32,000 nucleotides of DNA from Massilicoli timonensis. GTDB lineage: Bacteria > Bacillota_I > Bacilli_A > Erysipelotrichales > Erysipelotrichaceae. Shown here piece by piece: positions 1,776-21,198 of the stretch (the stretch's first letter is position 1; each line of letters begins with the position of its first letter). The stretch is taken from the NCBI RefSeq assembly GCF_900199515.1, contig NZ_LT963434.1, forward strand, positions 1,712,180 through 1,744,179, in the 5' to 3' direction. The notes under the pieces were generated by a model. The model was not told the origin of the DNA and made no database searches. It saw nothing but the letters and a program-made list of their open reading frames with translations. Both the position numbers and the translations under genes were made by a program.

Positions 1776-1815
1776 AGTGATTACCTCATTTCGTTATTTT
1801 AGGGGGTGGATGGTC

Positions 1816-3093: not shown

Positions 3094-3106
3094 ATTGCGT
3101 CCTCCT

Positions 3107-4369: not shown

Positions 4370-4384
4370 ATCGCCTGCACCTCC

Positions 4385-6685: not shown

Positions 6686-6780
6686 TCTGACCTCCAAAAC
6701 TTGTGTTTCAAAAACAGCAGGCTGCCAAACACAAGACCGCTTCCTACAAGGAAAAATCCATTTGCAATAACGCTCCCCAT
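6682..6780 (-). CDS. Candidate 32-aa single-TM micro-protein (MGSVIANGFFLVGSGLVFGSLLFLKHKFWRSE)
   Basis: Fills the gap between the two permease genes. Hydrophobic core plus a basic tail. Its stop overlaps the next start as ATGA. No clear SD. Confidence 0.25.
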   Translation of the reverse strand: MGSVIANGFFLVGSGLVFGSLLFLKHKFWRSE

Positions 6781-6807
6781 ATCAACAAACGGCCATCTCG
6801 GATGCAC

Positions 6808-7443
6808 TCATATCAAACGGACTAAATCGCCGGAAGTAATCAAGTAAAATGGCATTGCCTCTGCCGAGCCTACATAGGTGGCATTAAACCCAAACAATAT
6901 TGCGGCCAGAATATAGAATAAGCGAATGTCAATCATCCCCGGTAAGGCAATCGAGCAAAAGCTGACAAATAAACTCGTTGGAACTAAAGAAACAAAGATT
7001 GCTTTTATCAACGGGGCAATACATTCAATCAGGGAAATTTCAAATGGCGCAGCAATAAAATAAATTGTCGTGTTAAGTAAAAGAAAAATACACTGCATGG
7101 AGAAAACATATAGAAATCCGCCCAACAGCTTTCCCAACACATATTGCCATTTTCGTAAGGCCGATGACATCAGCAAAGATTTCATTCCTGTCTTAGTATC
7201 TATCGGAATACGTCCTGCCAATAAGAACATCAGACCGAACAATAAAACAAGGCTGTCGAGGCTCACAATCCGATAAACAAAGTATGCTGGCTCATTCAAA
7301 AACTCCAACCGAGCTAAATTCCCAGCAGAGGGGAAATTGTCAAGTAAAGAAAGTGCCGTCGCTACAAGAAGTACACCCCATGTAACCAGACGCTTGAACT
7401 GCATTTTATATTCATAATGGAGAACAGAAAACATTTTACGCAT
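6808..7443 (-). CDS. Polytopic membrane protein, probable ABC-2-like permease subunit
   Basis: About 6 hydrophobic segments. The likely start at 7443 (MRKMFSVLHYEYK) is preceded by GGGAGGG and overlaps the ATPase stop. Confidence 0.7.
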   Translation of the reverse strand: MRKMFSVLHYEYKMQFKRLVTWGVLLVATALSLLDNFPSAGNLARLEFLNEPAYFVYRIVSLDSLVLLFGLMFLLAGRIPIDTKTGMKSLLMSSALRKWQYVLGKLLGGFLYVFSMQCIFLLLNTTIYFIAAPFEISLIECIAPLIKAIFVSLVPTSLFVSFCSIALPGMIDIRLFYILAAILFGFNATYVGSAEAMPFYLITSGDLVRLI

Positions 7444-8314
7444 GGGCTTTCCCTCCCATACAATACACATAAGCATCTTCCAAAGTCGCCGTGACAGGTG
7501 TGGCCTGTAAGAAAAGCCCGCTTTCGTCCATTATTCGCGCAGTCAATCCGTGGCTCTCATATGTCGTCGATAATACTACCGATTTCTTTTGAAGCTCGAT
7601 AAGCTGGTTTTCATTTTCTAAATGTAGGATTTTTACCTTATCTTTTACCCGTTCCAATAAGGTGGCAGATGTGCCAGCATAAAATAGATGCCCTTTCCGC
7701 AGAACAGCAAGTTCTTCGCATAGCTGGTGAATATCTTCGACAATATGTGTAGAAAGCAAAACGGTGCGGCCCTCTCTTGCATATCTTGACAATAGGCCGC
7801 GGAACCTCACCCGTTCTTCTGGATCAAGACCGGCTGTCGGTTCGTCAACAACAAGAATTTGAGGATTGCCAATTAGCGCCTGCGCGATGCCAACCCTCCG
7901 TTTCATGCCGCCTGAAAGCTGACCTATTTTGCGTTTGGAAAATTCCAACATTTCAACCTGTTCCAACACATTGCTGACAGCTTTTTTGTTATGAATGCCT
8001 TTGAGTTCTGCCATGTAATTTACAAAGTCAAATACAGAAAGAGAGGGGTACATGGCAAGTTCCTGTGGCAAATATCCAACTCTTGCTCTGACCTCATTTC
8101 CCTGTTTCACGGTATCAAAACCGCAAATGCGGATTGTGCCTGCTGATGGGGTTAATACCGTAACCAATGCCTTCATCAGCGTAGTTTTTCCAGCACCATT
8201 GTGTCCCAACAGGCCAAAAACACCGCTGCCAACACGAAAGCTGACATCATCAAGGGCGGTAACGCCGTTCTTGTATTTTTTAGTAATGTGACTAATCTCA
8301 ATGTTTGTATTCAT
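7436..8314 (-). CDS. ABC transporter ATP-binding protein (ABC-2/DrrA-like subfamily)
   Basis: Walker A GHNGAGKTT, signature LSGGMKRRVGIAQA, Walker B LVVDEPTAGLDP, H-loop LSTH. The ATG at 8314 follows GGAGG. Confidence 0.9.
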   Translation of the reverse strand: MNTNIEISHITKKYKNGVTALDDVSFRVGSGVFGLLGHNGAGKTTLMKALVTVLTPSAGTIRICGFDTVKQGNEVRARVGYLPQELAMYPSLSVFDFVNYMAELKGIHNKKAVSNVLEQVEMLEFSKRKIGQLSGGMKRRVGIAQALIGNPQILVVDEPTAGLDPEERVRFRGLLSRYAREGRTVLLSTHIVEDIHQLCEELAVLRKGHLFYAGTSATLLERVKDKVKILHLENENQLIELQKKSVVLSTTYESHGLTARIMDESGLFLQATPVTATLEDAYVYCMGGKAHA

Positions 8315-8366
8315 ACGCTCCTCCATTTAACTACATTCGTAGATTTATAGGCTTTAATGATACGGG

Positions 8367-9332
8367 TTACTCATTGTAACCCGCACCATATTCTGTACCA
8401 GTATTATAGGCCGGATAAGGATAGAAATGTTCTCTGCTAAATTGTACGGAAAAAGCAACCGTAAGTATCAGAGAAACAGCCAGAATAGCCGTTATCATCC
8501 TGTCCCTGATCTTTGATGATTTTGTGGTGATCCGTTTGATTCTACGTTTTGTCAACACAAAACTGAGTGCGCCAATCCCTTTACCGGGTTTTGTAGCTTG
8601 AACCGTAGACAGTTCCAGCAGTCGGATAATAGCCGCAGCATATTCTGTTTCTGTGACTTTTCCCTGCGAAAATTTTAAGGCATTGCAATCGCAATCCGTT
8701 TCACAATGTAGTGAAAAATCTCCTTTAGCAATCCACGCAAAAGGGTTGAGCCAGTTTAATATGCAAACATAATCATAGATACGCTCCAAAAGAATATGTT
8801 TCCGCTTAATATGGGTCAACTCATGGATAAAGACAGCGGATAATTCGCCATCGGTCAGCTTTTCTATAACTGTTTTGCTCATGATAATTGCTGGGCGGAT
8901 TGCGCCGGTAACGCAAATGGGGTTATCCAAAGTCCCCCAATATAGTGCAGGCACTTTTTTTAAGCCGACAATTTCCGCACATTGTAAGCAAAGAGCATTT
9001 AGACGCTCAGTGCTACATATCTGGTATCCTTTCAATGCCCGCTTTGCCATTATAGAGCGTATCGTATCATAGACGAAAAGAATACCGCACCCACACACCC
9101 ATACCCAACAGGCAATATAAAATCCATTTAACCATTCCTGTGTTTCTGGTGATATGAGAAACACATCCGGTGAAAGGAATGGAACGCAAAAAAGGATCAT
9201 ACCGCAAAGCGGAAACCATAGCGGCAGCGTACAACGCAGAATGTGATTGATAAAAAGAGATAAAACACAAAATATACCGCCAATAGCAGATACAAAAATA
9301 ATCGCATTGAAAATGTTACCGAGTATCTGCAT
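8367..9332 (-). CDS. M56-family (BlaR1/MecR1-like) membrane metalloprotease lacking a penicillin-binding sensor domain
   Basis: HELTHIKRKH (HExxH) after an N-terminal TM bundle. Only 321 aa, with a final TM and a short tail. 17-nt overlap with the upstream BlaI-like gene. Confidence 0.85.
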   Translation of the reverse strand: MQILGNIFNAIIFVSAIGGIFCVLSLFINHILRCTLPLWFPLCGMILFCVPFLSPDVFLISPETQEWLNGFYIACWVWVCGCGILFVYDTIRSIMAKRALKGYQICSTERLNALCLQCAEIVGLKKVPALYWGTLDNPICVTGAIRPAIIMSKTVIEKLTDGELSAVFIHELTHIKRKHILLERIYDYVCILNWLNPFAWIAKGDFSLHCETDCDCNALKFSQGKVTETEYAAAIIRLLELSTVQATKPGKGIGALSFVLTKRRIKRITTKSSKIRDRMITAILAVSLILTVAFSVQFSREHFYPYPAYNTGTEYGAGYNE

Positions 9333-9705
9333 CTGTTTTCTCCTGCTGCTCGATCAAGCTCTTTAGCTCATGCAATTCATCAGACGAAAGATTGCCGTTT
9401 TTGACAAATCCCATTACCATCTTAGACAGGGAACCATCATATACGCGGCTTAGAAAACTGCGGCTTTCCGCAAGCTGGCATTCACTTTCTGATACTGCTG
9501 GATAATATAAGTATCCCTTTCCTTGACGTTTTGTAGTCAATGCTCCTTTTTTTACCAAACGGGCAAGGTATGTTTGAATAGTCGTCTTGCTCCAACCTGT
9601 TTCTTTTAACCTGTCTAATATTTCGGGAAGTGTTTGTGGAGAATTACTCCAAACAATCTTCATTACTCGCCACTCTGACTCTGAAATAGAAAGTTGCTGC
9701 TCCAT
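9316..9705 (-). CDS. BlaI/MecI/CopY-family winged-helix transcriptional repressor
   Basis: 129 aa. ISESEWRVMKIVW ... WSKTTIQTYLARLVKKGAL pattern. Gene pair with the M56 protease. Confidence 0.9.
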   Translation of the reverse strand: MEQQLSISESEWRVMKIVWSNSPQTLPEILDRLKETGWSKTTIQTYLARLVKKGALTTKRQGKGYLYYPAVSESECQLAESRSFLSRVYDGSLSKMVMGFVKNGNLSSDELHELKSLIEQQEKTDADTR

Positions 9706-9772: not shown

Positions 9773-9945
9773 CCATTGCATAGAATATCTATACGTAAAA
9801 TTAAACGGAAAACTATGCCTGTCTACGCATTTAAGCCACTGAAAAGCCCGCTATTTCGGGGTTTCCCGGCATGGTCGATGGGCAAGGCAGGACAGATTAT
9901 CTAATCCTCGCCAGAGAGCGCTTCTAAATCTGTAGGGAAATCCAT

Positions 9946-9993
9946 AAAACGTTGGGCATGGTAACTGTTAGCTACACACCCAACGCTTTTTTT
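9946..9993. terminator. Bidirectional terminator-like hairpin downstream of the histidine kinase gene
   Basis: cgttggg (9950-9956) / cccaacg (9979-9985). A long T-run follows on the plus strand (9987-9993) and TTTTA on the minus strand. The loop is rather long (22 nt). Confidence 0.5.
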
Positions 9994-10013: not shown

Positions 10014-11378
10014 TCACCACAAAAATGCTGTAAACTTCACACCGTTTTCCGTATTAACCATGTTATAGATAATTTCGTGGTGATCCAGGATGGTTTTAGT
10101 GATATACAGCCCCAGGCCGCTGCCGCCGCTGTTCCGGTTCCGGGATTTGTCCACCCGATAGAAGGGAGTGAAGATACGCTCCAAATCTTCCTCAGCAATG
10201 TGGACGCCGGTATTCTCCACGGAAAACACCTCGTCTTTTTGGGTGACAGTAATCACCGCCCCCACCGGCGAATAGGTCACGGCATTTCCGATCACATTGG
10301 TGAACACTTTCTCCATAAGCCGCCGGTCCCCCTGGTAGTGGTATTCCGGCTGGATGTCCATGCGAAGCTCGATCTGCTTATCCTCCATCCGGCCACGGAA
10401 CTGCTGGCAGACCTTTCGCAGCATTTGGCTGATGTCCAGGTCAGTGCGCTCCAGGTGGAAATCGCTGCCGCCCATCCGGGCCGCCGATAGAATCTCCTTT
10501 ACCAGCGCCTCCATGTCATTGGTGGTTTTCATACACCGGCGCAGGTAAGTATCGCGGTCTTTGTATTCGCCAACCTGATAGATCATGCCCTCCAGTTGCC
10601 CCTTGATGATGGCAATGGGAGTTTTCAGCTCATGAGAGACGGCGGTGAAAAATTCCACGCGCTGCTTTTCCTGCTCACGCTCCCGCTCAATATCTTTCTT
10701 CAACTGCCAGTTCGCTGACCGCAGGCTGGCCAGCGCATTGCTGAGCTGCTCCGCCATCTCATTCAGGCTGGTGGCCAGCACACCGATCTCGTCTTTTCGG
10801 TTGACTTCACACTTCCAGGTCATGTCCAGGGTGGTCATCCGCTTTGCCACGTTGCTGATATTGACCAGCGGCTTAGAGTAGTACCGGGAACAAACTACCG
10901 CCCCAATGACGGAGATCAATAGAATCACAACGGCAATAAAGGGGATGAGCTTCAACAGGATGTCATAGGACTGCGCCACCGCAACCAGGGCGGCATTGGC
11001 AAATACATGGTAGGTCTGCCCGCCTTGCTGGAATGTAGCGGAACAGCTCATAGAGGGGGCAGAAGTGTCCATGTTCTCCATATCGGCAAAATTCACGGAG
11101 AACAAATTATTCCCATAATCATCGTTGATTTCCACCGAGGCGTTGTTCGTCATGGAAAATTCCATCAGACTGTCCGAACTGGCCTCCCAGCCGTTTCGCT
11201 CCAAAACCGCCACCAAGTCATAAAAATCGGAAGTGACTTGGCCTTCCAGCTCCGTATGGTAATTCCTCGGCAGGAAAATCATCACCATGCCGTAAATGAT
11301 AATGCAGCAGACCACCAGCAGCGCCAGCATACTGAGGAAGGTTTTGGCCTGAATGCTTTGACTAATCTTCCTTCTCAA
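10014..11378 (-). CDS. Sensor histidine kinase with extracytoplasmic sensor domain, HAMP, HisKA and HATPase_c
   Basis: Two TMs flank about 110 aa. H-box FTAVSHELKTPIA, N-box NVIGNAVTYS, G-boxes ENTGVHI and GGSGLGLYI. TTG start overlaps the response regulator stop. Confidence 0.95.
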   Translation of the reverse strand: MRRKISQSIQAKTFLSMLALLVVCCIIIYGMVMIFLPRNYHTELEGQVTSDFYDLVAVLERNGWEASSDSLMEFSMTNNASVEINDDYGNNLFSVNFADMENMDTSAPSMSCSATFQQGGQTYHVFANAALVAVAQSYDILLKLIPFIAVVILLISVIGAVVCSRYYSKPLVNISNVAKRMTTLDMTWKCEVNRKDEIGVLATSLNEMAEQLSNALASLRSANWQLKKDIEREREQEKQRVEFFTAVSHELKTPIAIIKGQLEGMIYQVGEYKDRDTYLRRCMKTTNDMEALVKEILSAARMGGSDFHLERTDLDISQMLRKVCQQFRGRMEDKQIELRMDIQPEYHYQGDRRLMEKVFTNVIGNAVTYSPVGAVITVTQKDEVFSVENTGVHIAEEDLERIFTPFYRVDKSRNRNSGGSGLGLYITKTILDHHEIIYNMVNTENGVKFTAFLW

Positions 11379-12036
11379 TTTTATATCCCGCCCCTCTCAT
11401 GGTTTCTATGTAGTCCACACCCAGCTTTTTACGGATGTTCTTGATGTGGGTATTCACGATTTTTTCATCGCCAATATAGTCGTAGCCCCAAACCGTGTCC
11501 AGCAGCCTTTCCCTGGACACCACCCGGCCCTGGTTCTCCAGAAGGAGCTTCAAAATCTCAAATTCCCTGGTGGTCAGGGAAACGCTTTCTGTTCCAACAA
11601 GGACGGTAAGGCTGTCCGTGTCCACCGTGATTTCCTTATAGCGGATCACGGTATTGGGCGCAGCGCCGCCCTGTTCAGCCCGACGCAGCACCGCTTCGAT
11701 ATGCTTCATCACAACCGGCATGGAAAAGGGCTTGGTGATATAATCATCTGCCAGAGCGTCAAAGCCCTTCATCTGGCTATCCTCATCATCCAATGCGGTG
11801 AGCATGATGATGGGAACCCGGCTCTCCTTCCGCAGAATCTCACATACGGCAAAGCCATCAATTTTCGGGAGCATTAAATCCAGAAGCACCAGGTCGGGCT
11901 TGTTTACCCGGAACTGTTCAATTCCTTCCAGGCCATCAGCAGCCAGAACCACCGTATAGCCTGCGTCCTCCAGGAACGCCTTGATAATATTCTGAATGGA
12001 TTCTTCATCCTCTATAATCAAAATCATTTTTGACAT
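11362..12036 (-). CDS. OmpR/PhoB-family response regulator
   Basis: Receiver domain (LIIEDEE, LLDLMLP, KPF) plus a winged-helix output domain (LTTREFEILKLL...RGAGYKIE). The ATG at 12036 follows GGAGGTG. The ORF-track extension to 12069 would cover the promoter. Confidence 0.95.
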   Translation of the reverse strand: MSKMILIIEDEESIQNIIKAFLEDAGYTVVLAADGLEGIEQFRVNKPDLVLLDLMLPKIDGFAVCEILRKESRVPIIMLTALDDEDSQMKGFDALADDYITKPFSMPVVMKHIEAVLRRAEQGGAAPNTVIRYKEITVDTDSLTVLVGTESVSLTTREFEILKLLLENQGRVVSRERLLDTVWGYDYIGDEKIVNTHIKNIRKKLGVDYIETMRGAGYKIEKED

Positions 12037-12055
12037 CGCTTGCACCTCCAAAGGT

Positions 12056-12088
12056 AGTGTAACATACAAAGGTGGAGTTTAGGTGGAG
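12056..12088 (-). promoter_or_regulatory. Putative autoregulated promoter of the response regulator / histidine kinase operon
   Basis: Minus strand reads CTCCACC (12088-12082), 4 nt, CTCCACC (12077-12071), 9 nt, TACACT (12061-12056). Geometry is identical to 5844-5876. Confidence 0.55.
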
Positions 12089-12221
12089 AAGGGGGCCTTT
12101 TTTGAAAAACCTCTCTATTCATATTATACCTGAACTGTGTTGCCAGAAAAAGTGTGCGAGTTTGAATTTTGTATATCCTCATAGCACGAGATTGTATGAC
12201 AGGCTGTTTCTATTTGAGAAA

Positions 12222-12264
12222 GTCAAAAATGCCCCTCACCCAACAATATCCAGGCGAGGGGCAT
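12222..12264 (-). terminator. Rho-independent terminator after the sigma-like gene
   Basis: atgcccctc (12229-12237) / gaggggcat (12256-12264), followed on the minus strand by TTTTTG. Begins 6 nt after the stop codon. Confidence 0.6.
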
Positions 12265-12269
12265 TAGAT

Positions 12270-12722
12270 TTAACTCTCCAATAAGAGCTTCAACTTTTTG
12301 AGGACCTTCATTTTCCGAACGTGAACAGCATTACGAAACACGCCAAGCTCGTCTGCATATTGCCGTTCTGTCTTTTCCTCAAAGAACAGTGCCTGGATCA
12401 GCGCACGTTCCTCTGGAGTCAGCAGGGAAAGCGCGGTATGTAGCCTGTCCACTTCCAGCTTGTGAAGCACCACGCTCTCCACACTTTCCTGCTCATCGGA
12501 GAATTGCTGGGCATTTTCATCCACCAGCCGGTCCAAAGAATCTTCGCGGCTGGGGATGATCTGCACCACTTGGCCCTCCTTTCCGAGAACGAATCGCTCG
12601 GTTTTCAAATCGTTCTCAAAATAGCGCATTTTCCGGTCGCCCTGCATATAGGCCCGGTACACTTCATCCGTGACCTCGACAAATTGGCCGCGAATCCATA
12701 TTCTTTTTTTATTAGCGTCCAC
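12270..12722 (-). CDS. Sigma-70 region-4-type regulator (conjugative-transposon sigma-like protein; GTG start)
   Basis: C-terminal LTPEERALIQALFFEEKTERQYADELGVFRNAVHVRKMKVLKKL resembles a sigma-70 r4 HTH. GGAGGT lies 9 nt upstream of the GTG. Confidence 0.75.
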   Translation of the reverse strand: MDANKKRIWIRGQFVEVTDEVYRAYMQGDRKMRYFENDLKTERFVLGKEGQVVQIIPSREDSLDRLVDENAQQFSDEQESVESVVLHKLEVDRLHTALSLLTPEERALIQALFFEEKTERQYADELGVFRNAVHVRKMKVLKKLKLLLES

Positions 12723-13058: not shown

Positions 13059-13190
13059 CGGCGGCCTTGATGTTACTCAAAACCGCCGCAGTACCCTGAA
13101 AATCCATTATGGGCGCACAAAGCTACCTGCCCTGCAACGGTTTTTTCTTTCCCCGTTTAGCGGGGCAGGATAGCTTGTCTTATTCGTTTT
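13059..13190 (-). repeat. Structured repeat of about 125 bp, copy B (partner at 5921-6045)
   Basis: Same two conserved blocks and the terminal attcgtttt abutting the stop of the DtxR-like gene. Confidence 0.6.
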
Positions 13191-13638
13191 ATTCTTGCTC
13201 TTGTGCGGCTGCCTCTTTCAGCCGCGAAAAGCTCTCATCGCTGATAATGTGTTCAATCCGGCAAGCGTCGGCCTCCGCAGTCCTGGGGTCAACGCCTGCG
13301 GCGATAAGCTGCTCGGTAAAAAAGCAATGGCGCTCATAGATTTTTTCAGCAACCTCGCGGCCCACATCGGTCAGATGGAGAAAGTGATCTTCGTCCATTG
13401 TAAGAAAGCCGCCGTCCCGCAAGGTAGCCACTGCATGGCACACGCTGGGCTTTGACACCTCCATGTGCCGGGCCACATCTACGGAGCGCACCATACCGAG
13501 TTTCTTTTGGAGAACAAGGATGGTTTCCAGGTAGTCCTCCCCGGACGGAGTTATTACGGGCTTCATAAACTCTTTGCGCTCCTTTGCCTGTTTTTGTTGC
13601 AATTCTTCCCATGCTTCACGAATAATCAAAGAAAACAC
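13189..13638 (-). CDS. DtxR/MntR-family metal-dependent transcriptional regulator (no SH3-like C-terminal domain)
   Basis: TPSGEDYLETILVL..., wHTH SKPSVCHAVATL, metal-site segment YERH...TEQL...DACRIEH. The family alignment suggests the start is the ATG at 13566 (MKPVITPSGEDY); 13638 is a GTG. Confidence 0.85.
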   Translation of the reverse strand: MFSLIIREAWEELQQKQAKERKEFMKPVITPSGEDYLETILVLQKKLGMVRSVDVARHMEVSKPSVCHAVATLRDGGFLTMDEDHFLHLTDVGREVAEKIYERHCFFTEQLIAAGVDPRTAEADACRIEHIISDESFSRLKEAAAQEQE

Positions 13639-13691
13639 CTTGGCACGCCCCCTTTCAAGAATAATAGGTTCTGATGTTTATGCAAAAGAAA

Positions 13692-15422
13692 TCACTTTAG
13701 TTTCCAGCCACTTGCCAGTTCACGCTGTTTCCAAAAACGACTATAAATTCCATCTTGAGAAATCAGTTCTGCGTGTGTTCCTTTTTGCGCCACTTTGCCA
13801 TCCGATATAACGACAATCTGATTGGCATTTTTTACTGTTGATAAGCGATGTGCAATGGAAATCAGTGTTTTTCCCTTTGTAAGTTGTTCAATCGCTGCCA
13901 ACAGTTCATGTTCATTCTCCGGGTCAACGCTGGATGTTGCTTCATCCAGGATAATGATTGGAGCATCTTTCAAAATGGCTCTCGCTATGGAAACACGCTG
14001 CTTTTCACCGCCAGACAAAGTAGAGCCACCTTCACCCACCTTTGTGTTATATCCTTCGGGCAAAGATACGATAAAGTCATGGCATTGAGCCTTTTTTGCT
14101 GCCTCCACGATTTGCTCATGGCTTGCATCAGGATTGCCAAAGCGAATATTATTCTCAATGGTATCATTGAAAAGGTAGACGCTTTGAAAGACCATGCTGA
14201 TATATTGCATAAGGCTATCCGCAGTGTAATTTTTTACATCCTGCCCGTCCACAAGAGCCTGACCTTCTTGAACATCCCAAAAGCGGGCAATCAGGTTGCA
14301 AAGGGTTGTTTTACCCGATCCCGATGGCCCCACAATCGCGCAGGTGGTTCCCTGTGGGATAAGCAGAGAAACATGGTCGATAATTTTTCTGGACTTTTCA
14401 TATCCAAAAGATACATCCCGAAGCTCAATATCAAACCGTTTCGGGACAAGTTTATTTGATGTTGTGTCCATCTGCGGGATGTTCGTAACTTCTTCCAGGC
14501 GGTTTAAGCCAGCGGTGACGACACGGGAAAGAAACGCACCATTTCCCATCTGCTCCATTTCGGAAAAAATGATAAAGGCACTGACAATCACCATGAGGCA
14601 CCACGGCAACGATAAACTTCCCGCCAGATACAAAAGAACGGCGGCTAACATCAAAACACTGCCGGTTATCTTGTAAACAGCAGAGTACCATTTCATCAAA
14701 GCCATAGAAGCGTGTTCCTGTGCAAGATCAGCTTCTTTCTTTTTGCGAAAAGAGGCATAAACGGCATTTTCGCTACCATCCGCTTGGGAAAAGGCACGAA
14801 GCACCGCAATTCCCCGGATATATTCCAACGCCTGAGTCGTCATATCTTCTTGCGCCGCCAATACTTTCGGTGCGTGTTCCCTTGCAACTTGTCCAATAGC
14901 ATGAAGAATTAGGATGCCGACAAGGGAACCTGCAAGGGTGATTACTGCAAAAACAGGAACGGAAAATAGGAAGAATACGATCATTACCAGCGCCATCAAC
15001 GCTCCGCTGGTCAGATCAGTGACCGCCATCATGGAATATTGTTCCAACTCTGTTACTGTCGTTGTAAGTACATTCTGAATACTTCCCAAACGCTGCTCGG
15101 AAAAATATCCCATAGGTGCTTTTCGCATGAGGGCGCCAACATGAAGTCTGTAATCACGGAATATATCAAAGCCCTTAGCACTCATGGAAATATCCATAAG
15201 CCACTGAAAAAAGAAACGGCCCAACACACTGATACACAAGACAGCAAGAGCTTTCCAGATCACATCCATTGTCAGGCTGTCCAGATCAGAGGCAACAATA
15301 TAAACCGCCCATAAAACCATTGCCATACATACGCTTTTCAGGAAATTAAAGAGGATGCCCAGCAAGATTTTTGATTTATGCTTTCCCGCCAGATTGAGTA
15401 TTCTTTTAATCATAGCAATCAT
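13692..15422 (-). CDS. ABC exporter-fold half-transporter (TMD-NBD fusion), subunit B of a probable heterodimer
   Basis: 576 aa. 6-TM N-terminal domain. Walker A GPSGSGKTT, LSGGEKQRVSIARA, IIILDEATSSVD, H-loop IAHRLST. Confidence 0.95.
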   Translation of the reverse strand: MIAMIKRILNLAGKHKSKILLGILFNFLKSVCMAMVLWAVYIVASDLDSLTMDVIWKALAVLCISVLGRFFFQWLMDISMSAKGFDIFRDYRLHVGALMRKAPMGYFSEQRLGSIQNVLTTTVTELEQYSMMAVTDLTSGALMALVMIVFFLFSVPVFAVITLAGSLVGILILHAIGQVAREHAPKVLAAQEDMTTQALEYIRGIAVLRAFSQADGSENAVYASFRKKKEADLAQEHASMALMKWYSAVYKITGSVLMLAAVLLYLAGSLSLPWCLMVIVSAFIIFSEMEQMGNGAFLSRVVTAGLNRLEEVTNIPQMDTTSNKLVPKRFDIELRDVSFGYEKSRKIIDHVSLLIPQGTTCAIVGPSGSGKTTLCNLIARFWDVQEGQALVDGQDVKNYTADSLMQYISMVFQSVYLFNDTIENNIRFGNPDASHEQIVEAAKKAQCHDFIVSLPEGYNTKVGEGGSTLSGGEKQRVSIARAILKDAPIIILDEATSSVDPENEHELLAAIEQLTKGKTLISIAHRLSTVKNANQIVVISDGKVAQKGTHAELISQDGIYSRFWKQRELASGWKLK

Positions 15423-15425
15423 TGC

Positions 15426-17180
15426 CTATCCCTCCTTCTTTTCCAGATTTGATGCTCCGACATACTGCTGCCACATTCGATGATACAGTGGACACTGTTC
15501 CAGTAATTCTTTCTGTGTTCCTCTGGCAATAATATTTCCCTTATCAACGACAAGAATTTGCTCCGCATTTTGAATAGTGGAAAGCCTGTGGGCGACAACC
15601 ACAAGAGTTTTGCCGTGAACAAGACGCCCAACAGCCTCTTGGATTTGAGCCTCGCTTTCGGGATCAGCGTAGGCAGTTGCCTCGTCCAAAATGATAAGGT
15701 TTGACTGTTTCAGCATAGCCCTTGCAATCGTAATGCGCTGGCGTTCGCCCCCTGAAAGCCGATCTCCCGCGTCACCGGCAAAGGTATCATACCCTTGCGG
15801 CAATTTCATAATAAAGTCATGGCAGTTTGCGGCTTTGGCCGCAGCCTCTACTTCCTGATCAGACGCTTGTGGGTTTCCCATGCGAATATTCTCTCGAATA
15901 GACTTATTAAACAAAAAGTTGTCCTGCGCCACATAGCTGATTTCCTGCATCAACTGATCGAATGGAATGTCTTTTATGTCCTTTCCACCATAGCGAACGA
16001 TACCGGAAGTCGCATCCCAAAATCCAGCCATCAGCTTTGCAATCGTTGATTTGCCAGAGCCGGAAGCCCCAACGATAGCGGTCATAGTTCCTGGTTTTGT
16101 CTGGAAAGATATGCCATGAAGCACTTCTTTGGTATCGTTATAGGAAAATGAAACATTCTCAAAAGAATATGCACTTCCGTCAAATTCAACTTTCGCATCC
16201 GGGCGTTTTTGTTCTGGCGTTGCGAGGAAATCTTTGACGGGCTTCAGATTAGCGGTAATCGTTGTCAGCATTTCGCCGGCACTTGCCAGCTTCATCAAAG
16301 GCGCAATCGCACCAATGGGGATGATAATGCACGCAACAAGGATCGGAAGTGAAATCTGCTGGTTCATATAGAGGTATGCACCAATGGGCAGACTTCCCAG
16401 CATTGTCGATGGAAGAATTGCTTTTACCGCAGCCATCCAAAACCAGCATTGCCGCCACCAATCAAGCGTACTGTCATGGAAAAAGTTCACTGAATTAGAA
16501 AACTTACCAAAAGATGCTCCTGTACGGCCAAAGGCTTTTATGACCTGGATGCCTCCAACATATTCAACCAGCGCTGCGTTCATTTCGTTTCCGCTACGCA
16601 GATAGGTTTCCATTTTCTCACCATATCCGCGAAGCATCCCGAAAATGAAAGGGATGCAAAGAGGAATTGTAATGAGTGACGCCAATCCCATGCGCCAGTC
16701 CAACGCAAACAGCAAAACAATGCAGGCTGCCGGAGCTGCGATATTTGAAGGGATTTCGGGGATAAAATGCGCTATCGCATCTTCTAATTTTGCAACATTA
16801 TCTACGATGAGATTTTTATATACGCCGGATGGCGTTTCCAGCATGACACCCATTGGAACCTTTCGCATTTTTTCTGCAATCGCACACCGAATATTGCACA
16901 AAATGGTAAATGCAATCTTATGGCTGCGGCTGGATGCAACAATACCGAGCAGAGTTTTGAGAATGATACCTGCTGCGGCAATTCCGGCCCAAATCAGTGT
17001 ACTATGTATCGTTGCTGTACCTGCGAAAACTTCGTTGGCAAGCATGGCGGCGGTCAAATAGGGGAGCATACCAAATAACTCTGACAGAACTGTCAAAATT
17101 ACAGACAGCGGCATCTTTCCCTTGGCATCGCCGGAAAACTCAAAAAGAGTTTTTATTGGATTATCTTCTTTCTGCTTCAT
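15426..17180 (-). CDS. ABC exporter-fold half-transporter (TMD-NBD fusion), subunit A of a probable heterodimer
   Basis: 584 aa. Walker A GASGSGKST, LSGGERQRITIARA, LIILDEATAYAD, H-loop VAHRLST. ATGA overlap with the upstream EcfA gene. Confidence 0.95.
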   Translation of the reverse strand: MKQKEDNPIKTLFEFSGDAKGKMPLSVILTVLSELFGMLPYLTAAMLANEVFAGTATIHSTLIWAGIAAAGIILKTLLGIVASSRSHKIAFTILCNIRCAIAEKMRKVPMGVMLETPSGVYKNLIVDNVAKLEDAIAHFIPEIPSNIAAPAACIVLLFALDWRMGLASLITIPLCIPFIFGMLRGYGEKMETYLRSGNEMNAALVEYVGGIQVIKAFGRTGASFGKFSNSVNFFHDSTLDWWRQCWFWMAAVKAILPSTMLGSLPIGAYLYMNQQISLPILVACIIIPIGAIAPLMKLASAGEMLTTITANLKPVKDFLATPEQKRPDAKVEFDGSAYSFENVSFSYNDTKEVLHGISFQTKPGTMTAIVGASGSGKSTIAKLMAGFWDATSGIVRYGGKDIKDIPFDQLMQEISYVAQDNFLFNKSIRENIRMGNPQASDQEVEAAAKAANCHDFIMKLPQGYDTFAGDAGDRLSGGERQRITIARAMLKQSNLIILDEATAYADPESEAQIQEAVGRLVHGKTLVVVAHRLSTIQNAEQILVVDKGNIIARGTQKELLEQCPLYHRMWQQYVGASNLEKKEG

Positions 17181-18661
17181 AAAGCCCCTCCTTCCTCAGA
17201 ACCGAAAAATTGTTGAACATGCTGTCCGTTCTGTGTATCAAACGGCCCATACCATTTCACAGTCCCATCCTCAATAAAAATGAAATAGTCACAGCATTCT
17301 GCAATCAATTCCGGGTCATGGGTAATAATCAGCGATGTTTTCCCTATGGCGCTTAATTTCTTGAGGCAATTTGAAACCTCCAACATATGCCGATAGTCCA
17401 AACCGCTTGTCGGCTCATCAAAAACCATAATTTCTTTTTTTGATGCAATGGCACTTCCAATCGCCACGCGCTGTTTTTGCCCGCCAGATAACGAAAGGGG
17501 ATGGATACTTTTTAATGCAGTTAAATCCATATCATGCAGGATCTCATCAACTATTTCTTCACGCTGAGCATCGTCCGTATGTTCCACGCTTATGGAGATT
17601 TCATCTTCAACGCTTTCTGTAAAAAGCTGATGATTGACATCCTGCATAACCAGATAGCAGATTTTCAGCCGCTGCCGGTTGCTGTATGTTTTACTTCCGA
17701 ACGAGAACAAGCCTCTTGCCCGTTTCTCAAGCCCACACAGGCAACGGGCAAAAGTTGTTTTTCCAGCTCCATTTTCCCCGATAATTCCAACAATCGCACC
17801 TTTCGGAATAGATAAGGTCGGTATTTCAATCCCAACGCCATCCTTGTAATGAAACGATAAATCTTTCACAGAATAGCAGTCCGAACTATACGGTGTTCTG
17901 GCATTGGAGTCAAAAGACACTGGCGATATGGATCGCAGCCCACGGCGCTTGATTTCATCTGCTGACAGGCCCCAGAATGTATCAGCGGGCATATCTTCTT
18001 TGATTTCTCCATCGTTCATATAAACAACCCGATCTGCCACACCCTTCAAATAACTAAGCCGATGTTCAGCAACAATAACGGTCTTTCCCTGGGCTTTCCA
18101 TCGCATGATAATATCTTTCAGCATCCAGATTGAGCGCCAGTCTAAATTAGAAGTGGGTTCATCCAAAACAAAAATGTCCGGCATGGGAATGGAAACTGAG
18201 GCACAGGCTATCTTTTGCTTTTCACCGCCAGACAGATGGAATAGATTTCGCCCAACAAGTTCTCCAATTCCAAATTCATTGATTGCGTTTTCTAAATACT
18301 GGCTGATTTGCTCAACAGGTACAGCCAGATTTTCACATCGAAAAATCAGTTCACTGGTAGAGTCAATATTAAAAAATTGTGTGCGCGGGTTTTGAAAAAC
18401 AGAGCCAACCTTTCGGGCTACCTTATGGATCGGCTGCTTCGAGATGTTTTCTCCATTAAGCAGGACTTCACCAGTGAGCTGCCCCTCATAAAAGCTGGGA
18501 ATAAGGCCATTCAATAGCCGTGTGATTGTTGTTTTTCCGCACCCTGATCCTCCACATATAAGGACAACTTCTCCATCGTGAATAGACAGATTTACATTCG
18601 TAAGAGAATTGTCCTGTTCGCTGTCCTTATAGCGGAAGGACACATTTTTCAGTTCGATCAT
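17177..18661 (-). CDS. Fused duplicated ECF-transporter ATPase (EcfA-EcfA')
   Basis: Two NBDs: GGSGCGKTT / LSGGEKQKIACA / VLDEPTSNLD and GENGAGKTT / LSGGQKQRVAIGSA / VFDEPTSGLD. The start ATG at 18661 (MIELKNVSFRY) follows AGGAGG. The ORF-track extension to 18754 overlaps ecfT. Confidence 0.9.
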   Translation of the reverse strand: MIELKNVSFRYKDSEQDNSLTNVNLSIHDGEVVLICGGSGCGKTTITRLLNGLIPSFYEGQLTGEVLLNGENISKQPIHKVARKVGSVFQNPRTQFFNIDSTSELIFRCENLAVPVEQISQYLENAINEFGIGELVGRNLFHLSGGEKQKIACASVSIPMPDIFVLDEPTSNLDWRSIWMLKDIIMRWKAQGKTVIVAEHRLSYLKGVADRVVYMNDGEIKEDMPADTFWGLSADEIKRRGLRSISPVSFDSNARTPYSSDCYSVKDLSFHYKDGVGIEIPTLSIPKGAIVGIIGENGAGKTTFARCLCGLEKRARGLFSFGSKTYSNRQRLKICYLVMQDVNHQLFTESVEDEISISVEHTDDAQREEIVDEILHDMDLTALKSIHPLSLSGGQKQRVAIGSAIASKKEIMVFDEPTSGLDYRHMLEVSNCLKKLSAIGKTSLIITHDPELIAECCDYFIFIEDGTVKWYGPFDTQNGQHVQQFFGSEEGGAL

Positions 18662-18672
18662 CGTGCCCCTCC

Positions 18673-19392
18673 TTAAAACAAGTAATAGAGAATAAGTGCA
18701 GCAGTTAACAGAACCATCAAAAGGATGTCCAATCCTTTGATCTTTATTTTGCAATAATTACTTCTTTCCGTATCTACGCCGAGGCCGCGTGCAACGGCGG
18801 CAGCGGATAGTTCGTCACCAATTTGCACAACAGAAGCAATCAGCGGTACGAGCCTGTATTCCAACATGGCAATCGGCCCTTTACTAACTCCAATACCGCG
18901 CATTTTCATTGCATCCTGAATACTGTGGTACTCGTCCGCCACCGTAGGAAAGAAGCGAAATATCACAGCGAAAGGGATTGTGATTTTTCTGGTAATGTGC
19001 ATTTTTTCCATCGCCGCCACAAACTCGCTGACTTTTGTTGTCTGTAAAAAACTCATGGCGATAAACAGGGTGGGCATCATACGAAGCACCACCTCGACTA
19101 ACAAGCGAATGATAATACCTAAAAGGCTCATTCCAGATATGTACGCCAGTAGCCCATTTGCCCCATAAGCGGCACAATAGGCCGCCGCATAAACCGCGGC
19201 AAGGCCGGGCCTCCTGATGTTTATCAACATCAGGAAAGCCAGCCCTGCAAACACGATTTTCAAAATGGTATCAAGTTCGCTTTCAGACGATGGAACCATG
19301 ACAAGACTGAACACCATTAAGGTATATAGTTTTGTCCTTGGGTCAAGATTGATAACGGCTTGCTGCGTATTCGTTGATACCTTACCACTCAT
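18673..19392 (-). CDS. ecfT: ECF transporter transmembrane T component (EcfT/CbiQ family)
   Basis: 239 aa polytopic protein. Coupling-helix-like motifs AMKMRG and AVARGL. TAATG overlap with the S-component gene. Confidence 0.85.
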   Translation of the reverse strand: MSGKVSTNTQQAVINLDPRTKLYTLMVFSLVMVPSSESELDTILKIVFAGLAFLMLINIRRPGLAAVYAAAYCAAYGANGLLAYISGMSLLGIIIRLLVEVVLRMMPTLFIAMSFLQTTKVSEFVAAMEKMHITRKITIPFAVIFRFFPTVADEYHSIQDAMKMRGIGVSKGPIAMLEYRLVPLIASVVQIGDELSAAAVARGLGVDTERSNYCKIKIKGLDILLMVLLTAALILYYLF

Positions 19393-19988
19393 TATGCAAT
19401 TCCCGCCCGTTTGAAATGCTTGTTTAGGACAGCGCGGCCAATCAAAGCGCCGATGACACCGCCGACAGCAGTTGCAAGAATGACAACTGGAACCATATAG
19501 CCCTGCACTAAGGCTGCGAGGCTATCTGCAAAGGCATCACCCTGGCTGGCACGATACATTTCAACATAAGCATCGCCCATGATAAACATGGGGAGCTGTG
19601 TCCCGACCTGCCAAACACTGAATACTGCATAGCCTGCCAGCATCGCTTTCCAGCTTTTATATTTTCCAGCCTTCATAATGACATCTGCCAGCAAGCCAAA
19701 GACAATGCCGGTAATCAGAGCGTAGTATCCATATCCCATCAGGAAAAAGATAAGGCCCAGAAGCACACCCATGATTGTCACAAGGCCGAAGGTTTTTACC
19801 TTCGTGTAGAAAAGGATGCAGGGTATGCCTGCAATGATCGCTGTCAGCACAGGATAAAAAACAGCCATCACCGGAACAAAGCCGGTCATTGCACACACAT
19901 AGAAGATCACAAAATAAATGACCGTGAAGATTGCGACATTTACAAGATCGCGCACGCCAATTTTTGAGGTTTGCACATTGTTTTCCAT
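19392..19988 (-). CDS. ECF transporter S component, MptD/Trep_Strep-like
   Basis: 198 aa, strongly hydrophobic, about 6 TM, with a basic C-terminal motif LNKHFKRAGIA as recalled for the Trep_Strep (TIGR02185) family. Sits directly upstream of ecfT and ecfAA'. Confidence 0.7.
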   Translation of the reverse strand: MENNVQTSKIGVRDLVNVAIFTVIYFVIFYVCAMTGFVPVMAVFYPVLTAIIAGIPCILFYTKVKTFGLVTIMGVLLGLIFFLMGYGYYALITGIVFGLLADVIMKAGKYKSWKAMLAGYAVFSVWQVGTQLPMFIMGDAYVEMYRASQGDAFADSLAALVQGYMVPVVILATAVGGVIGALIGRAVLNKHFKRAGIA

Positions 19989-20005
19989 AAAATATCCTCC
20001 TTTGT

Positions 20006-20034
20006 TTGTTAGTTGCTGCTAACCTATTTGTCAA
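20006..20034 (-). promoter_or_regulatory. Putative promoter of the ECF/ABC operon containing a DtxR/IdeR iron-box-like sequence
   Basis: Minus strand has TTGACA (20034-20029), 17 nt, then TAACAA (20011-20006). ATAGGTTAGCAGCAACTAA (20027-20009) matches 14/19 positions of the recalled consensus TWAGGTWAGSCTWACCTWA. Confidence 0.35.
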
Positions 20035-20039
20035 AATGT

Positions 20040-20078
20040 AGCCGACGCTTTGAATATTCTCATATCAAACCATCGGCT
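20040..20078 (-). promoter_or_regulatory. Imperfect inverted repeat just upstream of the putative ECF promoter
   Basis: agccgacgctttga (20040-20053) / tcaaaccatcggct (20065-20078), 12 of 14 positions complementary, 11-bp spacer. The ccgatggt core is also present in the TetR-gene operator. Confidence 0.4.
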
Positions 20079-20123
20079 GTAAGATTGTGTGAAAGCGCCT
20101 ATACGCAGATCATTCGGGCGGCT

Positions 20124-20771
20124 TTAATCCGGCCACATGACATCACCTACTTTCCCGCCTTCAAAAATCGTTTTCCATCCGGCATTGAAGAACCAGCTCA
20201 TACTTTGTATGTGCTTTTTAGCATCTTCTTTGGTCATATCATGGATAACGGTTTCAAAAAGGCCCGTATAAAAAGCGCTCGATAGCAGGTGGGCCAATTC
20301 CATTGTCAACCGGCCAGAAGAAATCGCATCGTTTCCAGTCTTTTCAATATATTGCAAAGTGGTCTGTATATCAATCGCAACCACTCTGTGCATAAACTCC
20401 TGATAGCAATTTGTTTCGCCGCTGAGAAGCATGATTTTGAATTCATCAAGATGAGCGAAAACAAAATCCATCAGCTTTGAAAATTTGCCATTGGAGTAGC
20501 TATTGATTTGTGCTTTTTGTTCTTCCGGCTCTAAAGCCTCAAACCCGGCCAGCGTTTTTTGTAACAACTCGCAAAAGCCATCAGCAACAGGCTGGACAAT
20601 ACTGTGGTATAACGCCTCCTTGTCCGAATACCGATAGAGCAAGGAGCTTTTCGTTGTGCCTGCTTTTTCGGCAATATTACGCAAAGAAGCGTTCTCGTAT
20701 CCATTGGCAAGAAATTCTTCTTTGGCACACTTGAGAATATTCTCCGTTACGCCTTCAATCATCTTGGCCAT
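20124..20771 (-). CDS. TetR/AcrR-family transcriptional regulator
   Basis: N-terminal HTH FLANGYENASLRNIAEKAGTTKSSLLYRYSDKEALY plus a helical C-terminal ligand domain. GGAGGTG SD. Confidence 0.9.
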   Translation of the reverse strand: MAKMIEGVTENILKCAKEEFLANGYENASLRNIAEKAGTTKSSLLYRYSDKEALYHSIVQPVADGFCELLQKTLAGFEALEPEEQKAQINSYSNGKFSKLMDFVFAHLDEFKIMLLSGETNCYQEFMHRVVAIDIQTTLQYIEKTGNDAISSGRLTMELAHLLSSAFYTGLFETVIHDMTKEDAKKHIQSMSWFFNAGWKTIFEGGKVGDVMWPD

Positions 20772-20790
20772 AGGCTCACCTCCTTCTTGT

Positions 20791-20864
20791 TTTAGACCAT
20801 CGGTCTAAACCGATGGTCTAAATATAGCATAGAAAGATCAGATAGTCAAGATGGTCTTTCTATG
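20791..20864 (-). promoter_or_regulatory. TetR-gene promoter with perfect 14-bp-arm palindromic operator
   Basis: Minus strand has TTGACT (20849-20844), 17 nt, then TATATT (20826-20821). This is followed immediately by the palindrome tttagaccatcggt / accgatggtctaaa (20791-20804 / 20809-20822). A second inverted repeat catagaaaga/tctttctatg (20828-37 / 20855-64) brackets the -35, and an extra AGACCATC half-site abuts the -35. Confidence 0.6.
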
Positions 20865-20895
20865 TTTGGTTGTTAATGCTAACGGAAAATAATGT

Positions 20896-20920
20896 AACAG
20901 GCGGAAAAAATCCGCCTGTT
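20896..20920 (-). terminator. Terminator-like hairpin after the TnpV-like ORF
   Basis: aacaggcgga / tccgcctgtt 10-bp stem with a 5-nt loop. The minus-strand tail acattatttt is only moderately U-rich. Confidence 0.5.
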
Positions 20921-20928
20921 CGATGCTG

Positions 20929-21198
20929 TTAAGCCATAATTAACTCATCTAAAACAATTTCCTCCGCCTGCGCTTTCAGCGTGTTCATCAGCCCCACCCA
21001 GCGCATGGGGTCACGGGATTTCAGTTCCTCGGTGACGCCCGCCGCCTCCATCATGCGGGGCAACATGGCGTCCATCCGTTCACGCGCCGCCCGATCAATC
21101 TCCAACAGGTGCGGGTACAGCTTTTCGCTCAAAATCAAGCTGCTGTAAAGGCTGGGCCGGTGTTCCTTCAGATAGCGTTGCCGCATACGGCCATACAA
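20929..21198 (-). CDS. TnpV-family protein, apparently N-terminally truncated (possible remnant)
   Basis: YGRMRQRYLKEHRPSLYSSLILSEKLYPHLLEIDRAA...EELKSRDPMRWVGLMNTLKAQAEEIVLDELI matches my recollection of TnpV from the conserved YG..R..YLKEH onward. About 25-30 N-terminal residues are absent. TTG pseudo-start with no SD. A hairpin lies directly upstream. Confidence 0.55.
   Translation of the reverse strand: MYGRMRQRYLKEHRPSLYSSLILSEKLYPHLLEIDRAARERMDAMLPRMMEAAGVTEELKSRDPMRWVGLMNTLKAQAEEIVLDELIMA

Follow-up and report, generated by a model that had tools for sequence, protein, structure and literature searches.

A mobile cassette in Massilicoli timonensis that pairs an MptD-type ECF transporter with a YbtPQ/IrtAB-like ABC pair, a candidate system for metal-chelate uptake

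Described relatives and gene layout

The closest described counterpart of the locus analyzed here is the mptABCDEF cluster of Mycobacterium avium subsp. paratuberculosis (MAP), reported as two putative ATP-binding cassette (ABC) transporters within a horizontally acquired island of metal genes, LSP14 (PMC4298942, PMC4132290). The mptABC genes are repressed by FurB/Zur and are induced by starvation for zinc, not iron (PMC4298942), and the function of mptD in MAP is still unknown (PMC4132290). The present locus lies in a 32,000-nucleotide stretch of the Massilicoli timonensis genome (contig NZ_LT963434.1, positions 1,712,180 to 1,744,179; hereafter the window, numbered from its first letter). 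There, seven intact open reading frames (ORFs) on the minus strand at 13189-20771 encode a TetR-family regulator, a putative S component of the MptD family, the coupling component EcfT, a fused EcfA-A' ATPase (AA'), two half-transporters that each join a transmembrane domain (TMD) to a nucleotide-binding domain (NBD), here called Exp1 and Exp2, and a DtxR-like regulator. Pfam and NCBIfam domains bear out this co-oriented order, which an earlier reading made from the letters alone (the sequence-only reading) had proposed. With roughly even confidence, based on sequence comparison, we interpret positions 13189-21196 as a self-contained mobile cassette for the uptake of a metal chelate (a xeno-metallophore), in which an energy-coupling factor (ECF) transporter and a YbtPQ/IrtAB-like pair would act jointly under metal repression and TetR gating. 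Because the cassette holds no biosynthesis genes, the chelator taken up would be one made by others.

Compared by description, the MAP cluster and the cassette share an MptD-family S component, an EcfT and an ECF ATPase clustered with two IrtAB-like TMD-NBD proteins, and both were horizontally acquired; the content of the MAP cluster agrees with the earlier statement that MptD takes its name from an island with this same pairing (PMC4298942). They differ in regulation, which involves Zur in MAP and a cluster-encoded DtxR/MntR-like protein plus a TetR protein here, and in host, an actinobacterium there and a member of another phylum here. The window cassette is further set apart by its order S-T-AA'-Exp-Exp, by its place as cargo of an integrative and conjugative element (ICE), and by having no adjoining siderophore-synthesis genes. 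Relative to an mpt-type cluster, then, the cassette is new in its regulators, host phylum and ICE context. Beyond incidental annotations, the literature on the MptD/Trep_Strep family yielded the MAP papers only, and the family pairing is indeed poorly characterized. The Bifidobacterium sifABCDE locus was also considered as an instance of the same system and was ruled out, since the published locus has FtsX-type permeases and an FMN reductase.

Among other ECF systems, LhaSTA of Staphylococcus lugdunensis is a heme importer that serves iron acquisition under Fur control (PMC7299338). As in LhaSTA and CbiMNQO/NikMNQO, the S, T and A genes of the cassette stand together and are associated with a metal-responsive repressor (Fur for LhaSTA, a candidate DtxR-type site here). 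Unlike those systems, the cassette has a PF09605/TIGR02185 S component, a fused A-A' ATPase and an obligatory ABC partner of the type IV (exporter) fold.

The five transport genes are closely coupled; the genes for the two regulators stand further off. The EcfT start codon and the S stop codon have one base in common, 11 nt separate EcfT from EcfA-A', the EcfA-A' stop and the Exp1 start overlap as ATGA (17177-17180) in a translational coupling of what are separate genes in the window, and Exp1 is followed by Exp2 after 3 nt. These four minimal junctions, quoted in the sequence-only reading, stand; the other two do not fit that description, with 135 nt between TetR and S, including a promoter-like site and operators, and 53 nt between Exp2 and DtxR, or 126 nt counted to the ATG. 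Two start codons affect the coordinates in Table 1: EcfA-A' is counted from an ATG, the mechanical ORF beginning at a TTG at 18754, and the DtxR-like protein has 149 aa from a GTG or 125 aa from an ATG at 13565, the latter a better fit to homologues. TetR and the transport genes have a G+C fraction of 0.43-0.48, against 0.52 in the DtxR gene and 0.54-0.59 in the part encoding the type IV secretion system (T4SS, 21-32 kb), in keeping with the description of the block as AT-richer than the T4SS module.

EcfA-A' scores 231 bits with the cbiO subfamily TIGR01166 (cutoff 211.8) and has a Walker A, a signature and a Walker B motif in both halves; judged by these features, the window is predicted to encode a dedicated (group I) ECF transporter, whose S component, CbiQ-type T component and double-NBD CbiO-type ATPase are adjacent and coupled. 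The NBDs of Exp1 and Exp2 both carry a consensus Walker A, an LSGGE signature, the D-E of Walker B and an AHR H-loop, so the motif check agrees with the canonical glutamates and signatures noted earlier in both subunits.

Table 1. Coordinates of the cassette genes, of sites around them and of selected features in related loci (L numbers denote loci other than the window)
Feature	Position	Strand	Evidence or detail
TnpV remnant, 89 aa	20929-21198	-	Pfam TnpV 2e-32, profile positions 26-111 only
Terminator-like hairpin ending the upstream TnpV transcription unit	20896-20920	-	10-bp stem, then ACATTATTTT
Sigma-70-type TetR promoter, TTGACT-17 nt-TGnTATATT	20821-20849	-	10/12 matches, extended -10
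Perfect palindrome TTTAGACCATCGGT-ttag-ACCGATGGTCTAAA, candidate TetR operator	20791-20822	.	14-nt arms, 100% complementary
TetR-family regulator, 215 aa	20124-20771	-	PF00440 (TetR_N) 4e-11
Imperfect inverted repeat AGCCGATGGTTTGA-N11-TCAAAGCGTCGGCT in the TetR-S spacer	20040-20078	.	86% complementary
Palindrome GGTTAG-N6-CTAACA, candidate DtxR-family operator	20007-20024	.	TTGACA (20029-20034) on one side, S-gene Shine-Dalgarno on the other
MptD/Trep_Strep putative S component, 198 aa	19392-19988	-	PF09605 2e-60; TIGR02185
EcfT (CbiQ family), transmembrane coupling component, 239 aa	18673-19392	-	PF02361 1.6e-17
Fused EcfA-A' ATPase, 494 aa, two NBDs	17177-18661	-	Two ABC_tran domains
Exp1, type IV (exporter-fold) TMD-NBD half-transporter, 584 aa	15426-17180	-	ABC_membrane + ABC_tran
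Exp2, partner type IV TMD-NBD half-transporter, 576 aa	13692-15422	-	ABC_membrane + ABC_tran
DtxR/MntR-like regulator, final gene of the block	13189-13638	-	PF01325 + PF02742
AA'-Exp1 fusion ORFs	L012:8394-11645; L013:2316-5666; L014:2837-6088; L018:11321-14575; L085:8001-11276; L086:8001-11345		
Loci linked to genes for nonribosomal peptide synthetases (NRPS) or NRPS/polyketide synthases (PKS)	L084:92-9858; L055:2840-8728; L035:8687-9805; L083; L094:1-8810		

Pairing and fusion of the two transport modules

Relatives of the S component were located in 80 genome loci (L005-L084), whose ORFs were classified with the window proteins as queries, and neighborhoods were counted in the 48 loci whose sequence extends 7 kb or more to either side of S. 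EcfT was found near S in all of them (48/48), fused AA' in 45 of 48, and at least two TMD-NBD genes within 9 kb of S in 43 of 48, a genomic context that upholds the pairing on which the sequence-only reading had been built. Regulators are more varied, with AraC in 30/48 loci, TetR in 24/48 and DtxR-like proteins in 17/48, at least one of the three being present in 45/48. The two ABC subunits themselves recur in combination: where related loci have such genes side by side, 58 of 68 pairs match an Exp1-like protein with an Exp2-like one. Gene order is variable, as S-T-AA'-Exp-Exp, as Exp-Exp-S-T-AA', or interrupted by an AraC gene. The ECF module and the type IV ABC pair co-occur almost obligatorily, and the arrangement is far beyond chance because dozens of unrelated genomes share this gene set.

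Two variants of the neighborhood were recorded alongside these counts. A 29-kb contig of a Methanosphaera metagenome-assembled genome (L064) contains Exp-Exp, two AraC genes, S-T-AA' and a flavodoxin gene, and this archaeal cluster reflects either inter-domain transfer or a binning artifact. Four loci (L008, L009, L010 and L016) have a small zinc-ribbon-like ORF directly 3' of TetR and ahead of the transporter genes, with two CxxC pairs (e.g. GWIHCPCCGNKTRTK...FCPKCGKEH); it does not occur in the window.

In four rumen genomes (L012, L013, L014 and L018), AA' and Exp1 form one ORF of ∼1083 aa with the layout NBD-NBD-TMD-NBD (AA' residues 1-487, a linker of ∼15 residues, then Exp1 residues 3-576). 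A database search returned full-length homologues of the fusion in at least 120 clusters (90% identity), 1068-1114 aa long and 38-100% identical, one cluster having 8364 members. They represent Firmicutes, Spirochaetes and Actinobacteria, with members in Lachnospiraceae, Butyrivibrio, Blautia, Ruminococcus, Treponema and Atopobiaceae. In Treponema bryantii and in Blautia, genes called independently run Trep_Strep, CbiQ, the fusion (two ABC_tran domains, ABC_membrane and a third ABC_tran) and finally another TMD-NBD gene. No description of an AA'-Exp1 fusion was found in the searchable literature. Taken as Rosetta-stone evidence, the fusions imply that the ECF ATPase and the type IV half-transporter appear physically associated, and they suggest that the ECF and ABC transporters work as one machine.

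The S component itself was assigned by profile searches. It scores 139.9 bits with TIGR02185 (MptD family, cutoff 76.45) and 204.3 bits with PF09605 (Trep_Strep, cutoff 28.7) over its full length, and among the Pfam and NCBIfam profiles it scores with no vitamin family; the protein is a member of the MptD family, as had been supposed. That family comprises 1257 clusters at 50% identity, and its conserved residues are D14, K63, D102, Y110, K111, W126 and the basic C-terminal motif KHFKRAGI, the last invariant across 14 homologues. An AlphaFold2 (AF2) model (predicted local distance difference test score, pLDDT, 90.4; predicted template-modeling score, pTM, 0.85) is all-helical with ∼6-7 transmembrane helices.

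The likeness of Exp1 and Exp2 to importers and exporters was judged against solved structures only, by sequence scores. Exp1 matches the half-transporters YbtP (309.6 bits), IrtA (282.7), YbtQ (260), Sav1866 (248.7) and TM288 (243), and its TMD alone separates them further: YbtP (5e-17, 65.4 bits) and IrtA (1e-13, 54.3 bits) lead, against 37.4 and 27 bits for the exporters TM288 (1.6e-8) and Sav1866 (2.5e-5), whose similarity in this domain is much lower, with YbtQ at 4e-8 and CydD at 1e-6. Exp2 scores highest with YbtQ (269.7 bits) and YbtP (∼269), just ahead of MsbA (256.8), and its TMD alone has IrtA as its sole match (2e-5, 27.6 bits). By these scores, the pair appears closest to two known exporter-fold siderophore importers, with a good margin for Exp1 and a thin one for Exp2. 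The label 'exporter pair' in the sequence-only reading, which had itself mentioned import as an option, is therefore probably misleading.

The comparison with YbtPQ and IrtAB extends beyond score, since these top-scoring solved half-transporters also form heterodimers of two TMD-NBD subunits, as Exp1 and Exp2 would. The SIP/FAD domain of IrtA is missing from Exp1, whose residue 23 aligns with IrtA residue 293; YbtPQ lacks that domain as well. What sets the present family apart is that an ECF module always accompanies the pair in related loci, in many cases with its ATPase fused to the pair, and that import is putative here.

The type IV fold is used mostly for export, and this is the starting point of the main competitor to joint uptake, an import-plus-export shuttle in which the ECF module would import the loaded chelator and the type IV pair would expel emptied or newly made chelator, the two being coupled for recycling. 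The fusions would suit such a coupled cycle, both NBD sites are fully competent by motif, and the NRPS/PKS-linked relatives described below need an exporter. However, the nearest solved relatives of the pair are importers, the loci linked to biosynthetic gene clusters often have a separate MATE transporter able to export, and the window cassette, like a Corynebacterium plasmid, keeps the pair without biosynthesis genes. We consider the shuttle unlikely, though it deserves to be taken seriously.

Multidrug resistance (MDR) heterodimers of Firmicutes, of the LmrCD/BmrCD/TM287-288 type, typically contain one degenerate, non-catalytic ATP site. With these and EfrCD the cassette shares the type IV fold, the two-gene heterodimer and an adjacent repressor with a palindromic operator, a classic drug-efflux layout when the repressor is a TetR. 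One could accordingly propose that Exp1 and Exp2 form a TetR-controlled multidrug or antimicrobial efflux pump, with the ECF and DtxR genes as unrelated neighbors on the ICE; the element does carry other resistance-like modules (BlaI/BlaR1-like, MacB/FtsX ABC and a two-component system), and YbtPQ itself is reported to influence antimicrobial susceptibility (PMC7876324). We regard efflux as very improbable, for the window pair differs from the MDR heterodimers in having both ATP sites at consensus and in its linkage to an ECF module and a metalloregulator, the ECF and ABC modules stay together in 43/48 loci and are often fused, half of the related loci have AraC or DtxR regulators in place of TetR, and a metalloregulator-type operator precedes the transport genes.

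Joint metal-chelate uptake fits the genes that recur around the clusters. In four loci, a single-module NRPS and a saccharopine-dehydrogenase-like reductase lie directly upstream of S. NRPS modules accompanied by a GFO_IDH_MocA reductase, a thioesterase and an AraC regulator are present in L084, L035, L055 and L083. Mediterraneibacter glycyrrhizinilyticus has extra NRPS modules, a GFO_IDH_MocA reductase-methyltransferase and a thioesterase, and a C. butyricum megaplasmid encodes a hybrid NRPS/PKS with an AMP-ligase and a thioesterase, besides an AraC regulator and a MATE transporter. The yersiniabactin and pyochelin (ybt/pch) loci combine an AraC regulator and an NRPS/PKS including a reductase of the GFO_IDH_MocA type with a YbtPQ-like pair, a layout that some related loci recall. 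On this gene content, the NRPS- or NRPS/PKS-linked loci in some Clostridia are candidate metallophore biosynthetic clusters of gut anaerobes. Other recurrent neighbors are FeoB, ZnuA, P-type ATPase, MatE, ZIP and flavodoxin genes. The earlier proposal of a metal or metallophore unit is supported by these neighbors (NRPS/PKS, FeoB, ZnuA, ZIP, P-type ATPase), by MptD membership and the 43/48 pairing, by the ligand residues of the DtxR-like protein and the palindrome described below, and by the zinc-regulated MAP prototype.

The hosts belong to the gut and oral anaerobes, among them many heme scavengers, and uptake of heme or of another tetrapyrrole or cofactor, iron-regulated in the manner of LhaSTA, would also employ an ECF module. 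LhaSTA provides the precedent of ECF heme import under iron control (PMC7299338), type IV proteins such as CydDC, which appear among the PDB matches of the Exp1 TMD, handle heme, and a Peripla_BP_2 gene belongs to the putative regulon. LhaSTA has no ABC pair, however, and its S-component family is probably not PF09605; the recurrent neighbors are NRPS/PKS, AraC, FeoB, ZnuA and ZIP genes, among which no heme-degrading or NEAT-domain genes were seen; and the MAP prototype responds to zinc, not iron. A heme-type substrate is therefore quite unlikely in our estimate.

Regulators and candidate operators

The TetR protein reaches no NCBIfam equivalog cutoff among the NCBIfam profiles. The layout of its promoter recurs upstream of TetR genes in related loci. 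The perfect palindrome begins inside the -10 hexamer and extends downstream, and TetR loci elsewhere have long, locus-specific palindromes at the equivalent position, as expected with TetR autoregulation; from its position and symmetry, the palindrome at 20791-20822 is a candidate autoregulatory TetR operator. The imperfect repeat in the TetR-S spacer has CCGATGGT in common with this operator and is either a second TetR site or a hairpin terminating the TetR gene.

The second palindrome, GGTTAG-N6-CTAACA, overlaps the sole plausible -10 of the S gene. No other copy of the motif was detected in the window, including upstream of the TetR and DtxR genes, even with two mismatches. Alignment of the regions upstream of S genes yielded the consensus GGTTAG-N6-CTAACY, and its 16-nt core, GTTAG-N6-CTAAC, occurs as 95 exact sites in 1.43 Mb of related loci against ∼1.4 expected. 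Most sites are positioned 20-30 nt ahead of the leading transporter gene (S or Exp1), with a median of 22 nt between motif end and start codon, and they accompany TetR, AraC and DtxR loci alike, as well as those of Treponema and Blautia. Further sites are at L085:1132, L085:4822, L085:6612, L086:3962 and L086:6648. Outside the transporter genes, two copies stand ahead of stand-alone DtxR genes in L067 and L070, one before a ZIP transporter gene and two before a Peripla_BP_2 gene for a binding protein of siderophore type, and GTTAG-N6-CTAAC may define a cross-phylum metalloregulon. Copies were also recorded ahead of DUF3793, methyltransferase and GNAT genes.

The 19-bp consensus of DtxR/IdeR is TTAGGTTAGSCTAACCTAA, with half-sites GGTTAG/CTAACC. 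The half-sites of the conserved motif equal these, spaced by 6 nt here and by 1 nt there, and we infer from this resemblance that a DtxR-family repressor binds GTTAG-N6-CTAAC. The cassette's own DtxR-like protein exceeds the cutoffs of both PF01325 (9.5e-10) and PF02742 (5.2e-11); it shares the winged-helix and the metal-binding/dimerization domains with DtxR/IdeR and MntR, and has no SH3 or SH3-like domain. It misses every NCBIfam equivalog cutoff, with 81.3 bits for PRK11050 MntR (cutoff 153) and 45.9 for DtxR (cutoff 290). Aligned to 2h09, 6kta and 1g3y, its ligand positions read D, E, H, C, E, H; the reference positions are D8, E11, H77, E99, E102 and H103 in MntR and M10, C102, E105 and H106 in DtxR, which makes the set a hybrid, with an MntR-like Asp/Glu (D8, E11) and a DtxR-like Cys-Glu-His (C102, E105, H106). 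Cluster-linked homologues from many loci keep D/E/H/C/E/H, and this subfamily follows the ABC pair in many of them.

The fairly constant distance to the start codon (median 22 nt) would also suit a 5'-leader RNA hairpin that governs translation or mRNA stability, in which case metal control would not be implied, and a 5-bp stem can indeed form. The predicted fold is weak, however, at -3.6 kcal/mol (z -0.7), and 47 of 200 shuffled sequences fold equally well. Sequence is invariant in the arms and free in the spacer, and 16 of 17 near-variants disrupt pairing instead of compensating for it. The motif also precedes unrelated genes, including regulator genes, and no riboswitch or other Rfam match was found within the window. 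Invariant arms, unpaired variants and a weak hairpin make a DNA operator for a dimeric protein the better reading, and we hold the RNA hairpin to be highly unlikely.

A different leader was observed in AraC-type loci (L045-L048, L065, L067, L070 and L079), where a conserved region ∼60-170 nt upstream of S (near 9830-9960) contains a direct-repeat-like CATTTGGAGYATTTTCAAACTATYCAGAGTGG, a -10-like TATAGT/TATGAT and a hairpin GCGAAAT..TTTCGC with a T-run, followed by GTTAG-N6-CTAAC. AraC may bind at the repeats, and the hairpin may act as an attenuator.

Mobility, mechanism and significance

The cassette moves as a unit and is a discrete mobile cargo across elements and genera. Nucleotide identity of 98-99% to three genomes, namely Owariibacterium komagatae (L005), Ruminococcaceae AM07-15 (L006) and Pseudoflavonifractor An85 (L007), is restricted to 12984/13228-21196, and the flanks differ; it is this confinement that identifies the block as discrete cargo, in agreement with its earlier description as mobile. 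The S protein of the window is 100% identical to that of O. komagatae. By the blastn breakpoints, identity to L005-L007 begins at 21196, inside the TnpV remnant, which suggests that the cassette was exchanged by recombination in tnpV between mobile elements. The L005 flanks encode a MobA/MobL relaxase, a primase-helicase, a large serine recombinase and a full-length TnpV.

In the window, the flanking gene content marks a conjugative element with several accessory modules. Upstream of the cassette lie genes for a type IV coupling protein, a VirB4-like ATPase, DUF6075, DUF6674, a sortase, a CHAP hydrolase and the TnpV remnant; downstream are genes for a small sigma-70 region-4 protein and for a response regulator plus histidine kinase, a BlaI/BlaR1-like pair accompanied by an ABC ATPase, and ABC genes of the MacB/FtsX type. 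Many gut metagenome assemblies contain this ICE together with the cassette. In Corynebacterium aurimucosum, a mobilizable 20.7-kb MOBF plasmid has S-T-AA'-Exp-Exp (L093:8184-14528) as essentially its sole cargo, and three Corynebacterium plasmid records, each 20,681 bp, have the same S-component match.

Several metagenomic copies depart from the window. The TetR gene is split in two in one ICE copy (L087:13112-13758), which may be a derepressed variant, and Exp2 is split in another (L088:18464-20195). At L092:12763-19183, an insertion flanked by insertion sequences lies between the CHAP and TnpV genes and holds a glycosidase, an AraC regulator and an aminoglycoside-phosphotransferase-like gene. 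Among the other modules of the window itself, positions 6050-9705 form a second AT-rich accessory region (GC 0.40-0.43) with a BlaI-like repressor (Penicillinase_R), a BlaR1-like M56 peptidase and an ABC ATPase, two further ORFs of this region (222 and 215 aa) having no Pfam match. Positions 1071-5722 and 10014-12722 contain three MacB/FtsX-type permease genes, an ABC ATPase, an OmpR-type response regulator, a HAMP histidine kinase and the small sigma-70 region-4 protein, which together resemble a module of this ICE for sensing and detoxifying peptide antibiotics.

How the cassette would operate can be outlined for the preferred interpretation of joint metal-chelate uptake. Under metal-replete conditions, the DtxR-like repressor, loaded with Fe, Mn or Zn, would sit on GGTTAG-N6-CTAAC and keep the S-T-AA'-Exp1-Exp2-DtxR transcript off. 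TetR would be a second lock, released by a small ligand, plausibly the chelate itself. With both locks open, the S component would capture the metal chelate at the outer face of the membrane, and its import would fall to the ECF module and the YbtPQ-like pair operating together as a single assembly. The metal is most likely iron, with zinc and manganese possible.

Several observations weigh against this interpretation. No His/Cys cluster, sought as a clue to the ligand, is present among the conserved residues of the S component, a mild argument against a bare metal ion as the substrate. In a Foldseek search, the AF2 model had no PDB match at E≤0.001 and hence matched no solved S component, the best being PanT (6zg3_C, E 4.5, TM 0.32); with no significant structural neighbor, the label 'S component' comes from family naming and context. 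TetR regulators most often govern efflux, and by TMD scores Exp2 resembles the importers weakly. The motif is tied to the DtxR family through half-site resemblance and position, and it is present without a local DtxR gene in 38 loci and with one in 16, so its regulator is perhaps encoded elsewhere or is not DtxR, another global regulator being possible. Finally, the hybrid ligand set of the DtxR-like protein means that the metal cannot be read from the sequence.

A broader proposal, which we advance tentatively and consider doubtful as a whole, is that the MptD-type ECF transporter and the YbtPQ/IrtAB-like pair form one supercomplex with four NBDs, an undescribed class of ABC machine that the widespread fusion polypeptide, with its linker of ∼15 residues, would reflect. 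S would capture the metallophore and pass through a cycle coupled with the type IV unit, either hand-over or import plus recycling. The machine would be repressed through a previously unrecognized DtxR-family operator, GTTAG-N6-CTAAC, common to Clostridia, Coriobacteriia and Spirochaetes, and would spread between gut bacteria as ICE or plasmid cargo for metallophore piracy.

The AA'-Exp1 fusions and the GTTAG-N6-CTAAC operator are family-wide features that make the cassette worth experimental follow-up. As a compact, intact and transferable unit with near-identical copies in cultured strains, it offers a handle on the function of MptD-type ECF transporters and a test of whether ECF and type IV ABC transporters form one machine, as the fusions imply. 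The candidate operator could define metal regulons in several phyla. The cassette also bears on the acquisition of chelated metals by strictly anaerobic Gram-positive gut bacteria, a largely unknown field, and on metal piracy as a trait traded via gut conjugative elements.

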